A stretch of DNA of 42,021 nucleotides from a virus (IMGVR_UViG_2939147180_000007); one strand, 5' to 3'. Positions 24,753-37,492 are shown, counted from the stretch's first letter. Notes: generated by a model from the letters alone, not told the origin. Translations and numbers: made by a program.

Positions 24753-25229
24753 CTATCTGCACTGCTCATTAATATACTTCTGGGTTCCTTCCAGTTGTTT
24801 TTGCATAGTGATCAGCCTCTCTCTGAGGGTGAAATAATCCCGTTCAGCGGTGTCTGCCAGTCGGGGGCTGGTTGCATTATCCACGCCGGAGGCGGTGGTG
24901 GCTTCACGCACTGACTGACAGACTGCTTTGATGTGCAACCGACGACGACCAGCGGCAACATCAGCGCGCAGAGTTTCATTTTCAGCTTTCGCATTGGCTA
25001 ATTCTCTCGAGTACTTTGCATCGAGTGCAGCAACATCACGCTGACGCTGCTGCATGTCAGCGATAGTGGCGATCGCCTGCTTCAGCTCACTGACTTTTTT
25101 ATCACGCTGTTCTTTGTAGGCGATGGCGTTATCACGGTAATGATTGACCGCCCACGACAGGCAGACGATGATGCAGATAACCAAAGCATAAATAATCGCG
25201 GCGACTCTGCTCACTGCTCTATCCCCCAA
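24753..25229 (-). CDS. Rz: spanin inner membrane subunit Rz
   Basis: 158-aa ORF, N-terminal TM then coiled coil; C-terminus ...[18 protein letters not shown] as in lambda Rz. Confidence 0.9.
24812..24994 (-). CDS. Rz1: spanin outer membrane lipoprotein Rz1 (embedded in Rz)
   Basis: 60-aa ORF in the +1 frame inside Rz; lipobox VVGCTS and proline-rich KPPPPPAW. Confidence 0.85.
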
Positions 25230-25744
25230 CAGGCTAATGCGCTTTCCTGGTCACGACGAATAACCTGTCCATAGCAGTTATTTGAACGTATGCGGCAATC
25301 GCGCCCACCATCTTTTATCCACCAGCGAATCGCCTCGCATGCGCCCTTACGATCACCGGCATTCAGCCGCTTATAAAACGTCGACGGGAAACACTTACCG
25401 GGGCCAATGTTATAGGGACAGAATGACGCTATACCCGCTTTTTGTGGTTCGGTCAGTAGTACTTTAATATTGCGCTCCACCCATGCCAGCGCCTTATCAC
25501 GCTCAATGGCGTTGACCTGGTCGCATTTTTCCTTCGACAGTTTCATACCGGGAAAAACGGGTTTTCCATCCACCATCGTGGCACCCCGACAGATGGTCCA
25601 GATGCCGGACCCATCGCGGTATGCCGTTGTGTGGTTACCTTCTTTTTCATCCAGAAACTGGTCGAGAATATCAGGCGCGGGCGCACCGACGGCAATCAGT
25701 GCCAGAACGGCAGCCGACAGGCCGTATCTGATTTTTGCGTTCAT
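25211..25744 (-). CDS. endolysin, SAR-type lysozyme
   Basis: 177-aa ORF with N-terminal signal-anchor ([13 protein letters not shown]) and lysozyme-like body. Confidence 0.8.
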
Positions 25745-25807: not shown

Positions 25808-26158
25808 TTAAGGTTGTGATTCCGGAGGAGTCTTCAGAGAACCAGTAATTCTTCCCGGTAGCTTTCCTTTGTAGGTTATCCATACATTCTGCGCCTCTAA
25901 AATTACGGGGCGCTTTTCCGGCGACTGCTCATCCCCTTCACATAACCCGGCAGCAACATCCAGGAAGACCTGTCTGATACTCATTCTGGCTGCTGCCTCA
26001 TAAAACTCCAGCGCGGCACCTTCAACACGGTCCAGCGAGATGTCCAGGTCAAAAATTTCACCGTCAAAGCGTTTTTTGTCCCGTAACGCTAAAGTTACCG
26101 TAACTTTATTCTCAAAATTGCGGATCCCTTTCACAATCAGTTCATAGTTTTGAGTCAT
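25808..26158 (-). CDS. hypothetical protein between holin and endolysin (YdfR-like position)
   Basis: 116-aa ORF; synteny with Qin essQ-ydfR-rrrQ. Confidence 0.55.
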   Translation of the reverse strand: MTQNYELIVKGIRNFENKVTVTLALRDKKRFDGEIFDLDISLDRVEGAALEFYEAAARMSIRQVFLDVAAGLCEGDEQSPEKRPVILEAQNVWITYKGKLPGRITGSLKTPPESQP

Positions 26159-26162
26159 TGAA

Positions 26163-26378
26163 TTACTCTCCCCGTGCCGCCTTACGACGGTCCTCTCTGA
26201 TTTTGAAATACAGGTTAGTCAGATATGTCAGCAGCCCAAACAGCAGACTCCCCAGCACGCCTATTGCCGCCCACTGAGACGGGGAAACCCTGTCCAGCAA
26301 CTGCAGGAACCAGTAGCCCGTTCCCACCGCTGACGTGGTGTATGACACACCTGTTGTGATTTTTTCCATCTGGTCCAT
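26163..26378 (-). CDS. class II holin (phage 21 S-like pinholin), dual-start motif
   Basis: track ORF 26163..26483; start at [10 protein letters not shown] (Met1/Met4 dual start); two TM segments; C-terminus [19 protein letters not shown]. Confidence 0.85.
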
Positions 26379-26685
26379 ACCCCGTCTCCCGTTATCCGGA
26401 AGCTGACAACAATAAAAAAGCCACCAGTTAACTACTGATGGCTCTGATAACTCATGCAAGCGTCTCAGACGATCCACTGACACTACCGGTGAGTTTAACG
26501 ATACCTTCCATTTGACTGGCTCACTTTTTATGATGATGCCGGTGTATTTATCTCCAGCACCAGACTTTCTATCTCAACGCCATACGTTGCATTTTTGGTA
26601 ATATCCGTCAGCGTCAGTGCATTTAGTCCCACTGCCAGACTGTCTTTTATGGCCTGGAATGCCGGGCCAGTACGATGACGTAGTA

Positions 26686-26874
26686 TCACTCCGGCTCAGT
26701 TGCACCACTGACCACCACATCACCTTCTGCTGCAATCGCCTGCATCAGGGTATAAGGGGTTATGGCCACCGGACTACCAAACGGCTGCCAGCCCTCTTTC
26801 AGTTTATGTGTCAGCTTTTCCGCAAGATCTGACGGCGGCGCCGCCCTGACAACATCATAGTGTTTAAATGCCAT
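26686..26874 (-). CDS. hypothetical protein upstream of holin
   Basis: track ORF 26686..26889; likely start MAFKHYDVV...; compact, typical coding composition. Confidence 0.45.
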   Translation of the reverse strand: MAFKHYDVVRAAPPSDLAEKLTHKLKEGWQPFGSPVAITPYTLMQAIAAEGDVVVSGATEPE

Positions 26875-27134
26875 GGTTCTTTCCACCATCTGAAAAATAA
26901 TTCTTTAAAATACCAGACATGTAACACAGAAAAAACACAAAACCATACCTTAAATAGAAACCTGATCATCAAGCAGATATGCATGGATAAACTACAAGAC
27001 GAGATATAAACCACCCTGCATTTAAATAAACAATAAACAACATCAGAAAAATAATTCTGCTCTATGGTTTATATTCAAAAATATCATTTATACTTTTCAG
27101 AACATCACCAGCAAGGCATAAACAAGGAAGCTAA

Positions 27135-27470
27135 ATGAAGTGGATTGTGATTGATACAGTTATCCAGCCATCATGCGGAATATCTTTTTCAGTCATATGG
27201 AGTAAAGTAAAATTAATAATCTGGTATCAATCGGATGCTTTCTTACCTCCTGAAAGTATATTTACACTGACTCACACAGGTATCATGCTCAATAACAAAG
27301 TGCTACCTGTAACCATTTACAACGTAGTACCATTCAATAAAACATTCTGGAATTTAATCAAAAACAGCCAGGAATGCCCTACAAATACAGATAACGTATT
27401 GAATGAATGCTTTAATAACCGTTGCATTCTGCAAATATGTCCTTATGGACTAAAACAACAAAGTCCATAA
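27135..27470 (+). CDS. hypothetical protein in AT-rich moron islet (opposite strand to late operon)
   Basis: 111-aa ORF with SD AAGGAAG upstream; GC content far below flanking phage DNA; no recognisable family. Confidence 0.35.
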
Positions 27471-27494
27471 GGAGTTTACTCACATCTGACAAAA

Positions 27495-27691
27495 TCAATA
27501 TAAACAGCCCCTCCGGAGAGGGGCTGGAGAGTGGCGCTATGTGCCATTGCATGGTGCCGGGTGCCTCCCGGTGAATTCAGTACCAGCACCTGAATCCGCG
27601 ATTATCCCATATACCTACTCGCTGATTACCCCTCCGCACAGGGGGATTCACCATGCGAAATTTTTTAACAAACTTCCCGCCGGCCAGACAA
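27495..27691 (-). ncRNA. candidate structured RNA module, copy 1 (promoter-like element, conserved helices, terminator)
   Basis: minus strand: TTGTCT-N17-TTAAAAAAT, then TCGCATGGTGAATCCCCCT...CTGAATTCACCGGGAGGCACCCGGCACCATGC, then palindromic hairpin AGCCCCTC-CGGA-GAGGGGCT and a U-rich tract. Confidence 0.35.
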
Positions 27692-27960
27692 TAATCGCCA
27701 GCCTGAATTATGAGCAACGTGGCATTTTACGGGAAAACTGTTTTCTGCAGTAAAAAGGCCCGCCGGAGCGAGCCTGGAAGGATAGCGGTCATGTGATGCC
27801 GGTTTCCCGGTAACTCAGCATCGGTATCTGAGTCAACGTTTTCTCTACTGGGTCATTTCCGATACGTTCCGCCTTCCGGCAGACTTTCATCACGTCAGAA
27901 AATATAGCACCCTGAGTAACAGGACAGTACTCAGAATTCAGGAAACTGTGACACATCCTG

Positions 27961-28160
27961 CACAGAAAAGCCCCTCCGGAGAGGGGCTGAAGTATAGCCT
28001 AATTTCTGTCTGTCGCATGGTGCCAGGGGCCTCCCGGTAAATTCAGCCTGTCTACTGAATTTGCATGTTCTCTGGATCATACACTTTGCCAGATGCCCCG
28101 CCGCTGAGGGGGATTCACCATGCGATGTAATTTTTAACAAATTCTCCGGCAGCCAGACAA
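27961..28160 (-). ncRNA. candidate structured RNA module, copy 2 (diverged duplicate of copy 1)
   Basis: same conserved blocks and hairpin-terminator as copy 1, different loop sequences, one G-C to G-U stem change. Confidence 0.35.
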
Positions 28161-28329
28161 TCATCAAGCTGTGGAATTGTGAGGTATTTAAAAATTTCAA
28201 CGGGTAACTGATACCCTGCTAATCGCCTGATGCTTTCTTTTTCAGCAACGGGAAAGCAACAACCACACACCCGCCACCAAAACACCATCAGACAGCACCG
28301 ACATTATCCGGCTGCTGAAGTCCACCATC

Positions 28330-28403
28330 ACCACCAGAAACAACAGGAGTGCAACCACAGCTGCTTAGAAGGCAATTGCTCTGTCCGGCTGAGCTAACAA
28401 CGC
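28330..28403 (-). pseudogene. tRNA-like remnant (Arg UCU-like D arm and anticodon arm, degenerate T arm and acceptor)
   Basis: minus strand TAGCTCAGCCGGACAGAGCAATTGCCTTCTAAGCAGC resembles tRNA-Arg D and anticodon arms; no acceptor pairing or canonical T loop. Confidence 0.3.
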
Positions 28404-28503
28404 TGAATACCGATAATGGACCGCCATCGGGGACCCGCCCCCGCACCAACAACCCTGTTATCGTGTCGTCTGCTCTTCCTGATAAGCTAATGGCGGTTTG
28501 TGA

Positions 28504-28579
28504 TGGTGGCCCTTGCTGGATTTGAACCAGCGACCTGGCGATTATGAGTCGCTCGCTCTCACCACTGAGCTAAAGGGCC
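28504..28579 (-). tRNA. tRNA with anticodon CAU (ileX-like, probably tRNA-Ile2; Met not excluded)
   Basis: 76 nt GGCCCTTTAGCTCAGTGGTGAGAGCGAGCGACTCATAATCGCCAGGTCGCTGGTTCAAATCCAGCAAGGGCCACCA; full cloverleaf; near-identical to E. coli ileX from memory. Confidence 0.85.
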
Positions 28580-28616
28580 GGGAGCAGAATAATAACGGTC
28601 CGTAATTAATTCCGCA

Positions 28617-28640
28617 ATAAAAAACCCGCTCGGCGGCGGG
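28617..28640 (-). terminator. tR'-like intrinsic terminator downstream of late promoter
   Basis: hairpin CCCGCCGCCGAGCGGG followed by U6 on the minus strand, about 50 nt downstream of the putative pR'. Confidence 0.6.
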
Positions 28641-28689
28641 TTGTAGAAACTCTTCTAACGTCAGGCATAAAAAGCCCATTATTATGACG

Positions 28690-28717
28690 AATTTACCACA
28701 GATTCCGGAAAAATCAA
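28690..28717 (-). promoter_or_regulatory. putative late promoter pR' (Q antitermination site region)
   Basis: minus strand TTGATT-N16-TAAATT immediately downstream of Q, followed by terminator; arrangement as in lambdoid pR'/tR'. Confidence 0.4.
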
Positions 28718-28722
28718 CCTTG

Positions 28723-29544
28723 TTACCTAGTTACCTTTTTTAACTGCCGCTCAGCCCATGCTTCTTCAATATCAAACCGGGTCACCAGCGCATCATAGAA
28801 TTTCTTAACTGTTTTTTCCCATGACGCGCGTGTTATCTGGTTTGTCACCTCGCATATAGCATTAAATGTCTCCGTTGATGGTAGTCTTTCATAGCCACGA
28901 CCACCACAACGCTGGCAGTCTCTGATAACAGGCATACCACGTTTTACCGACTCTTCACGATGAATGGCGACACCACGCCCACGGCAATCCTTACAGGCGG
29001 TGGAAACCTCACCCTTTCCGCCACACTCCGGACAGGCAACTTTTACCACCTCCCTGACTTTTTTCCATTCTTCCCAGTAAGACGAATACACACCTTTCGT
29101 ACACTTTGCCCATACCGGCGGCTTACCATCCGGATACTGGACCTTGTTTGTAAAAACTACGCTTTCAATAAATTTTTCCCCATAGCAACAAGGGCACTGC
29201 TTTTTACTCGCTGCGCTGCGGGCATAATCCTCAAAAGCGTACGAAGCCATAATGCGCATCACTAACGGTTTTATTTCTGCCGGAAGTTTTCTCAACGCCG
29301 CAACACGATCGCACCGACTGAGTGCATAATCTGCCAGTAATTCTGTTGCCCGCGCCCTGTCATTCATACTGATGCCCATTTTCCCCAGGAACGCAGAAAA
29401 CCCCATCTCAGCCCGATTCTGTGTCATGCCCTGCGCGGCCATCACATCAGTGATACTCAGCGCATCTTTTGACGTTGAGGCCGATGCATCGGTCAGGCCA
29501 GGGGATTTTGGGGAGTAGTATTTCGGTAAATCTTCCAGTTTCAT
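28723..29544 (-). CDS. Q: late gene antiterminator Q (phage 21/82-type)
   Basis: 273-aa ORF with Cys-rich zinc-binding region (CPCC...CPECGGKGEVSTACKDCRGRG...CQRCGGRG); upstream of pR'/tR' and lysis genes; 4-nt overlap with rusA. Confidence 0.8.
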   Translation of the reverse strand: MKLEDLPKYYSPKSPGLTDASASTSKDALSITDVMAAQGMTQNRAEMGFSAFLGKMGISMNDRARATELLADYALSRCDRVAALRKLPAEIKPLVMRIMASYAFEDYARSAASKKQCPCCYGEKFIESVVFTNKVQYPDGKPPVWAKCTKGVYSSYWEEWKKVREVVKVACPECGGKGEVSTACKDCRGRGVAIHREESVKRGMPVIRDCQRCGGRGYERLPSTETFNAICEVTNQITRASWEKTVKKFYDALVTRFDIEEAWAERQLKKVTR

Positions 29545-31427: not shown

Positions 31428-31583
31428 TTACTCCTCAGGTTCGTAAGCTGTGAAGACAGCGACCTCCGTCTGGCCGGTTCGGATTCGTACCTCGCAGAGG
31501 TCTTTCCTCGTTACCAGTGCCGTCACAATGACGGTTAAACAGATGACGATCAGGGCGATTAACATCGCCTTTTGCTGCTTCAT
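31428..31583 (-). CDS. hok: Hok/Gef family type I toxin
   Basis: 51 aa MKQQKAMLIALIVICLTVIVTALVTRKDLCEVRIRTGQTEVAVFTAYEPEE, near-identical to HokD/RelF from memory; in-frame upstream extension to 31640 occupies the mok position. Confidence 0.88.
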   Translation of the reverse strand: MKQQKAMLIALIVICLTVIVTALVTRKDLCEVRIRTGQTEVAVFTAYEPEE

Positions 31584-31842
31584 AGCCTGCTTCTCCTTGC
31601 CTTTCGGCACGTAAGAGGCTAACCTAGATTTGCCGTTCATAGATTGAGCCTCAGATTAATGTTAAGCGTCTTGCAGGACGCGTAATGTTAACTGGGGCTT
31701 TTCTCTATCTGCCTTTTGGTGTTCATGCCTGAGACAGATAGCCTCAAGCACCCGCAGTCATTCTACTTAACTAAGATTTCCCCGCAAACCGTTTTTGTCC
31801 GGCACAGTAAATATCCAACTAAACCAATGGCGTTCGCTGTAT

Positions 31843-37434: not shown

Positions 37435-37492
37435 TTTCTGGTGACATTTGGCGGTATCAGTTTTACTCCGTGACTGCTCTGCCGCCCTTTTT
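37435..37492 (+). ncRNA. dicF: DicF small RNA (ftsZ-targeting antisense sRNA)
   Basis: TTTCTGGTGACATTTGGCGGTATCAGTTTTACTCCGTGACTGCTCTGCCGCCCTTTTT matches DicF from memory; about 170 nt upstream of dicB. Confidence 0.7.

Follow-up and report, generated by a model that had tools for sequence, protein, structure and literature searches.

An AT-rich islet between the Q antiterminator gene and the lysis genes of a lambdoid prophage of the Qin/potB type carries iraL, the CFT073-type paralogue of the gene encoding the RssB anti-adaptor IraM. The islet was analysed as part of a stretch of viral DNA of 42,021 nucleotides (IMGVR_UViG_2939147180_000007), which is called the window throughout. The iraL coding sequence extends on the plus strand from 27135 to 27470, i.e. 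from an ATG start over 111 codons to the stop, exactly as it had been proposed in the initial annotation of this DNA. With a probability of roughly 0.93, the islet is an iraL moron whose product acts as an anti-adaptor, binding RssB and stabilising RpoS in the growing lysogen. The gene has been known by this name since its characterisation in 2014 and is part of routine annotation; the assignment represents a useful annotation and has little weight as a discovery.

Composition, limits and neighbourhood of the islet

The sharp drop in base composition that had been described for this moron islet could be verified. The G+C content, computed directly, is 0.325 for positions 26890-27480 compared to 0.505 for the whole window. 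It falls from approximately 0.50 on either side (0.504 towards the lysis genes, 0.497 from STnc100 to Q) to 0.28-0.36 over 26900-27499, with values of 0.298 in the 245-nt spacer upstream of the reading frame and 0.342 in the frame itself. The ends of the islet were set by the loss of homology to related phages without it, which places the islet at 26868-27539 (G+C 0.347). In blastn comparisons, phage JLK-2012 is homologous to the window up to 26867, where its yjhS/nanS-p gene starts, and again from 27540, which corresponds to the body of an STnc100-type sRNA; approximately 170 bp are found there in place of window positions 26868-27539. In phage PhiR49_2, which has neither the islet nor the esterase gene, the homology restarts at 27548. 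Both phages keep the two flanks. Hence, these breakpoints define an insertion at approximately 26868-27539, which separates sequences that lie side by side in related phages. Moreover, the region 26100-28750 was matched at 99.8% in the deposited phage genomes vB_EcoS-733R4, -640R1, -716R1 and -813R8, i.e. the islet is present on phage genomes besides chromosomes. Its composition deviates clearly (0.325-0.347 versus 0.50), and homology to CFT073 indicates an own promoter active in the lysogen, since there a start was mapped by 5'-RACE in log phase and a -100 fragment suffices in K-12. The islet is therefore a genuine moron, an AT-rich and independently transcribed insertion in the Q-to-holin cargo slot, which is directed against late transcription.

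The orientation of the gene was also given correctly in the initial annotation, because the genes of the Q antiterminator with its DnaJ-type zinc finger (28723-29544), the P21-type holin (within 26163-26483) and the lysozyme (25211-25744), all assigned by reading frames and Pfam, are located on the minus strand, as are those for RusA, DUF1327/YdfR and Rz. The gene iraL is wedged between an array of STnc100 sRNA genes and the remnant of an esterase gene. To the right, STnc100 copy 1 occupies 27496-27684 on the minus strand (Rfam RF02076, 132.5 bits versus a gathering score of 47, full-length match to the model). Altogether, minus-strand matches to STnc100 were found at 27496-27684, 27749-27924 and 27960-28153; two of them are full-length (132.5 and 138 bits), and the weak match between these two reaches 30 bits, which is below the gathering score. 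A 2026 preprint relates STnc100 to prophage PasD sRNAs upstream of the esterase-holin-lysozyme block.

The left neighbour is a remnant of a nanS-p/yjhS sialate esterase gene at 26528-26889 on the minus strand (DUF1737 with a Pfam E value of 4e-17; yjhS of JLK-2012). It is composed of a DUF1737-containing N-terminal fragment of 67 aa (26686-26889) and a C-terminal fragment of 53 aa (26528-26689). The 5' end of the JLK-2012 yjhS gene corresponds to window positions 26655-26867 and its 3' end to 26162-26670, while approximately 1.5 kb between them are missing from the window; the two homology blocks overlap by 16 bp at 26655-26670. The equivalent esterase coding sequence is marked as incomplete by RefSeq in strain DA33137 as well as in CFT073. 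Between 28362 and 28621, after Q, only one tRNA gene was detected, a tRNA-Met with CAT anticodon at 28504-28579, whose RefSeq equivalent is labelled tRNA-Ile. CFT073 and several phages have three tRNAs there (Ile/Met, Arg, Arg), and the window has diverged from the tRNA-Arg sequences. Furthermore, the same prophage harbours a sok antitoxin RNA beside a hokD-type toxin gene (31578-31753) and the sRNA DicF (37436-37487).

Family assignment of the protein and its contacts with RssB

The 111-aa product had been regarded as belonging to no recognised family, which has to be corrected. It matches the NCBIfam model NF007393 ('anti-adapter protein IraM') with 162 bits at a cut-off of 121 over residues 1-110 of 111, and a phmmer search against the PDB aligned its residues 1-78 without gaps to 8TWD_A, which comprises IraM residues 1-78, with an E value of 9e-32. 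With IraL from CFT073 (C_RS06710, 111 aa), the protein shares 109 of 111 residues (98%), the two differences being V25I and I98T. On the DNA level, 13 nucleotide differences from CFT073 were counted in the 681 bp of 26860-27540. Hryckowian et al. (2014) define iraL-type genes by at least 95% identity to CFT073 iraL across the coding region, and the window gene falls into this group with three differences in 336 bp. The same applies to the promoter, for which at least 96% identity to CFT073 including the mapped start can be taken as the measure: two differences (27072 and 27101) occur in the 100 bp upstream of 27102.

A local Pfam-A scan of the reading frame and of K-12 IraM returned no match even at E 10, although PF11183 (PmrD) is assigned to nearly the whole family in precomputed Pfam tables. 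Because NCBIfam, the PDB and these precomputed tables place the family, the empty scan points to the local Pfam copy and not to the protein, i.e. to a version or threshold difference between Pfam resources. By its sequence, the protein is a predicted member of the IraM fold consisting of a beta-barrel, a beta-hairpin and a helix. An AlphaFold2 model, which was calculated from a shallow alignment of 16 sequences, gave a mean pLDDT of 36 and a pTM of 0.20, values too low to be informative on the fold.

In the crystal structure of IraM with RssB (8TWD), three clusters of contacts were described (PMC10844676). Cluster I contacts the alpha4-beta5-alpha5 face of the RssB receiver domain, which is also the site for sigma-S, cluster II contacts the C-terminal domain, and cluster III the linker and helix alpha8 (PMC10844676). 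All five residues of cluster I (I4, I6, W22, K26, I42) are identical in the window protein. Three out of five are identical in cluster II (T13, C14, F18, W30, L75), where S13 and I75 are found in the window protein, and two out of four in cluster III (I61, Y62, H63, I64), where N63 and V64 are present and P66 is kept. Thus, the receiver-domain contacts are fully conserved and those to the C-terminal domain and the linker partly. [quoted passage not shown] In our view, the contact pattern of the window protein would fit an IraL that retains the contact to the N-terminal domain only.

The C-terminal part of the protein, residues 79-111 (27369-27467 on the plus strand), forms a cysteine tail in the family alignment. 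Four cysteines in the spacing C-x10-C-x4-C-x4-C (C81, C92, C97, C102) together with P82, P103 and G105 are invariant in the 16 aligned family clusters as well as in two homologues with 32% identity, and the same applies to the CPYG motif. In contrast, C14, which is part of the crystallised core, varies across the family. Full-length IraM was reported to be unstable and insoluble, and residues 79-107 were removed for structure determination, where the tail was called less conserved and flexible (PMC10844676). The words 'zinc' and 'cysteine' are absent from the searched structural and biochemical literature on IraM, and in the searched IraM/IraL literature neither the cysteine tail nor the PhoP-box-like repeat discussed below is mentioned as a functional feature. 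The tail may represent a metal-binding or redox(-sensing) module.

The family assignment raises the question of whether the gene is a functional equivalent of K-12 iraM, i.e. silent in rich medium, induced via PhoP/PhoQ on magnesium starvation, and encoding a protein that clamps both RssB domains. The product name 'IraM' in RefSeq, the common family NF007393 and the 66 out of 107 residues that are invariant across IraL and K-12 IraM would suit such an equivalence. The same holds true for a PhoP-box-like direct repeat, TGTTTATTGTTTATTTA, which is located on the minus strand at 27023-27039, 96-112 nt upstream of the ATG. Among all sites of the 42-kb window, it alone matches KGTTTA-N5-KGTTTA with one mismatch, and it recurs, again with one mismatch, at the same position and in the same orientation in front of the copy of phage Stx2_EH1910 (L004 3359-3375); the E. 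albertii copy has a weaker version with two mismatches (L018 4892-4908). However, when up to two mismatches are allowed, the 12 matches found in the window compare to 9 expected, which corresponds to chance frequency. Since the DNA is AT-rich and the overall number of matches is at chance level, the repeat is kept as a lead only and may well be a chance match.

Moreover, K-12 IraM (b1160) and the window gene are only 63% identical on the protein and 71% on the DNA level, which is far from the at least 95% identity to K-12 iraM that would mark a K-12-type gene. Hryckowian et al. (2014) reported values of the same order for iraL versus iraM, 67% for nucleotides and 58.9% for the proteins (PMC4045071). 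The blastn homology to the K-12 iraM locus is confined to the coding sequence (27133-27454) and does not continue beyond it on either side; the promoters of the two genes are therefore unrelated, and no promoter or regulatory region is shared. [quoted passage not shown] Hence, an equivalence to K-12 IraM in regulation and binding mode appears improbable, and the gene is better read as iraL of the CFT073 type.

Transcription signals, proposed action and conservation

The transcription start of iraL at 27102 on the plus strand was transferred by homology from CFT073, where the 5'-RACE sequence ACATCACCAGCAAGGCATAAACAAGGAAACCA (PMC4045071) can be aligned to window positions 27102-27133 with 30 matches out of 32. 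Consequently, a transcript signal exists for the gene in the form of a start mapped in a 98% identical locus. The sequence TATACT at 27089-27094, seven bases 5' of the mapped start, is by our own assignment the probable -10 hexamer. A scan for the sigma-70 consensus did not pick up the RACE-mapped promoter and listed three matches, which is chance frequency. In the same scan a near-consensus -35 hexamer was absent upstream of iraL, and TATACT was not listed because a good -35 hexamer is lacking. The Shine-Dalgarno sequence that had been noticed upstream of the frame is AGGA at 27125-27128, six bases 5' of the ATG, and is kept in the copies of CFT073 and Stx2_EH1910. One study found higher IraL levels in a fur mutant of CFT073 (PMC7157518).

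Downstream of the frame, the initial annotation had placed the hairpin of STnc100 copy 1. A G+C-rich hairpin is indeed present at 27505-27526, 35 nt past the iraL stop, with a stem of 9 bp including seven G-C pairs, and it is common to the convergent iraL and STnc100 genes. Stretches containing it fold with -25.6 kcal/mol (75 nt, plus strand) and -24.2 kcal/mol (56 nt, minus strand). However, a T-run exists on the minus strand only, and the iraL strand forms a stable stem that lacks a U-tract. The structure is thus the 3' end or terminator of the convergent STnc100 copy and not a dedicated terminator of iraL; its presence after the frame was correctly stated, its ownership has to be assigned to the STnc100 gene.

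Experimental data on the action of the gene come from the closely related locus of CFT073. [quoted passage not shown] Furthermore, iraL together with 100 bp of its native promoter raised sigma-S in K-12, and this fragment was active in CFT073 as well (PMC4045071). For the window allele, which differs by the two exchanges V25I and I98T, we infer that it would behave like CFT073 IraL. In the lysogen, a sigma-70-type promoter would then start a short monocistronic iraL mRNA at approximately 27102 against the direction of late transcription, with a leader of 33 nt and AGGA as ribosome-binding site. The prophage would constitutively make the 111-aa anti-adaptor, which is expected to occupy the sigma-S-binding face of the response-regulator-like adaptor RssB and, when bound, to block the delivery of sigma-S (RpoS) to the ClpXP protease. 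Sigma-S would become more stable in exponential growth, and the general stress regulon would be partly pre-armed. In this way the prophage would change the general stress response of its host by higher RpoS levels in growing cells, and higher RpoS via IraL has been linked to how uropathogenic E. coli and Shigella adapt to their niches. It is also conceivable that convergent late transcription could shut iraL off on induction. If this is true, the shut-off would couple the RpoS stability of the host to the state of lysogeny or lysis.

The reading frame at 27135-27470 is the only sizeable one of the segment, and among 1000 dinucleotide-preserving shuffles an ATG-started frame of 111 codons was reached three times (mean 50, sd 16). 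Ratios of dN/dS were calculated according to Nei-Gojobori for three genes, namely those of the window and of K-12 and a further variant carried by a Stx2a phage. They amount to 0.09-0.16 in the frame of iraL and to 0.23-3.1 in the five other frames; the second-lowest value was obtained, as expected, for the antisense frame which shares the wobble positions. The substitutions between family members are mostly located at synonymous sites of the plus-strand frame. The iraL frame is thus conserved under purifying selection, and the conservation on which the proposed gene depended was found. In the set of complete E. coli genomes, the frame is intact and of full length in 1427 genomes.

These data also bear on the idea that the gene could be no more than a decaying remnant, silent within a defective prophage, i.e. 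an AT-rich, H-NS-silenced and unexpressed frame without effect on the host. Signs of decay exist in the surroundings, such as the deletion of approximately 1.5 kb in the neighbouring esterase gene, the detection of just one of the three tRNA genes of CFT073, and frameshifted genes in the matching prophage of strain DA33137. A G+C content of 0.30-0.34 is, moreover, typical of targets of xenogeneic silencing, and K-12 iraM is reportedly repressed by H-NS. Nevertheless, a decaying gene is hardly compatible with a frame intact in 1427 genomes, with dN/dS well below 1, and with a promoter that differs at two positions in 100 bp from the CFT073 fragment active in CFT073 and K-12; we consider this explanation very improbable. 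The least credible alternative, to which we attach next to no probability, is that a minus-strand feature, such as a segment of the leader of the late transcript or an antisense RNA missing from the annotation, explains the conservation, with the plus-strand frame being incidental. In its favour, late transcription antiterminated by Q has to cross this DNA on the minus strand before the holin gene is reached, and the STnc100 sRNA genes directly to the right are minus-strand genes. However, the minus-strand frames of the segment have at most 67 aa and cross the limits of the islet, an Rfam search of 26600-28400 at E 1 gave no family inside 26868-27495 and only the STnc100 copies to the right, most substitutions are synonymous in the plus-strand frame, and Q and the holin remain connected in the phages that lack the islet. 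Minus-strand coding was therefore rejected by frame lengths and frame-wise dN/dS, an RNA explanation of the islet by the lack of an Rfam match inside it, and neither accounts for the conservation, which leaves the iraL moron as the preferred reading.

Distribution of the family and comparison with known systems

The 591-bp segment was found by megablast at 90% identity or more in 1445 of 5426 complete E. coli genomes, and among the matches listed RefSeq labels its gene in every case as 'anti-adapter protein IraM'. K-12-type iraM is the commoner paralogue (3936 of the 5426 genomes). Among GTDB species representatives, a search with narrow patterns retrieved 8 loci from Escherichia, Shigella and a few Enterobacteriaceae MAGs, which is a lower bound; Salmonella RssC was not retrieved in this search with its narrow patterns. 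The two 32% identical homologues (L012 and L013) come from one Enterobacteriaceae MAG and one Pseudescherichia MAG.

The initial annotation had pointed out that lambdoid phages carry stx at the position of the islet, and this is supported by homologues between stx2B and nanS-p/yjhS in Stx2a phages. One variant with 76% identity and 111 aa (P0004), which a single genome carries in two prophages, is flanked by stx2B on one side and by an intact nanS-p esterase gene on the other, and the 73% identical copy of Stx2_EH1910 has the same position. The IraM-family genes beside stx2B (L004 3471-3794, L015 3206-3541, L016 3173-3508; 73-76% identity) are all oriented opposite to stx. A 66% identical member from E. 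albertii (P0008) has Q (PF06530) and an ORF6N gene on one side and DUF3927 and the esterase gene on the other. A 59% identical member (P0016) is found between a methylase gene after Q (PF06323) and a DUF1737 gene. Hence, this slot is filled by family members of 76, 66 and 59% identity, always directed against the late genes, and the Q genes next to them belong to three different families. Every member examined, L012 and L013 not being included, lies between Q and the holin opposite to the late strand, except for K-12 iraM.

The IraM/IraL family travels in the cargo slot of stx, so that genes which stabilise RpoS may reach the host by phage together with toxins and sRNAs. In a limited literature search, we found no experimental study of the stx2-adjacent IraM-family genes. 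A more far-reaching view would be that the whole IraM/IraL family is dedicated cargo of lambdoid phages, as opposed to a host gene with a single unusual phage copy, and that the cysteine tail, the PhoP-box-like repeat and the antisense position have a regulatory meaning; we regard this as speculative and rather unlikely. A reading of the K-12 iraM locus as a remnant of the same prophage slot was considered and set aside, because its homology is restricted to the coding sequence. K-12 iraM (1211680-1212003) is located just outside the annotated right end of e14 (1211412). The order in the K-12 locus is icdC-iraM-ymgK-ymgL-ycgX (L002 7414-9108), and ycgX, a DUF1398 gene, is of a kind that lambdoid prophages often carry.

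Generally, lambda bor and other lambdoid morons are small late-region genes with an own promoter, which are expressed from the prophage, lie on the opposite strand and deviate in composition. The islet described here resembles them in this respect, whereas their products are unrelated to IraL, which targets a host protease adaptor and not the cell surface. On the protein level, the structure of IraM was reported to have a single neighbour, PmrD (PDB 4HN7), with an r.m.s.d. of about 1 A (PMC10844676). PmrD is the connector between PhoP and PmrA and binds, like IraM, the receiver domain of a response regulator; it differs in its partner, which is PmrA and not RssB, and in its effect, i.e. protection from dephosphorylation compared to blocked substrate delivery. 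A sequence match of the window protein to PmrD was not found in the Pfam-A scan and in the phmmer search of the PDB.

K-12 IraM (YcgW/ElbA), the anti-adaptor of Mg2+ starvation, belongs to the same family and would by sequence adopt the same fold of a beta-barrel plus helix. It has the receiver-domain contact residues, the four C-terminal cysteines and the CPYG motif in common with the window protein, which carries four additional C-terminal residues (QQSP). Its gene has an unrelated promoter and unrelated flanks next to icdC and ycgX, and both the binding mode and the inducing condition reported for K-12 IraM are other than those of IraL (PMC4045071). The copy of Stx2_EH1910 (LC567834, annotated as iraM) is closer in its arrangement, since it shares the slot, the orientation on the opposite strand, a homologous promoter region and the same downstream hairpin. 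The stx2-phage copies differ from the window in that they adjoin stx2B and an intact nanS-p gene and encode 107 aa (Stx2_EH1910) or 111 aa (P0004).

The counterpart of the window gene is iraL of CFT073, formerly ycgW (Hryckowian et al., mBio 2014, PMC4045071), with the same promoter, mapped start and orientation. It is located in the potB prophage in the gene order of the window, i.e. DUF968, RusA, Q, tRNAs, DUF3927, iraL on the opposite strand, a truncated DUF1737 gene, holin, YdfR and lysozyme, and an STnc100-type element belongs to its neighbours, too. The two loci differ in the region after Q, where an IS200 and three tRNA genes are present in CFT073, and one detectable tRNA gene plus a second full STnc100 copy in the window.
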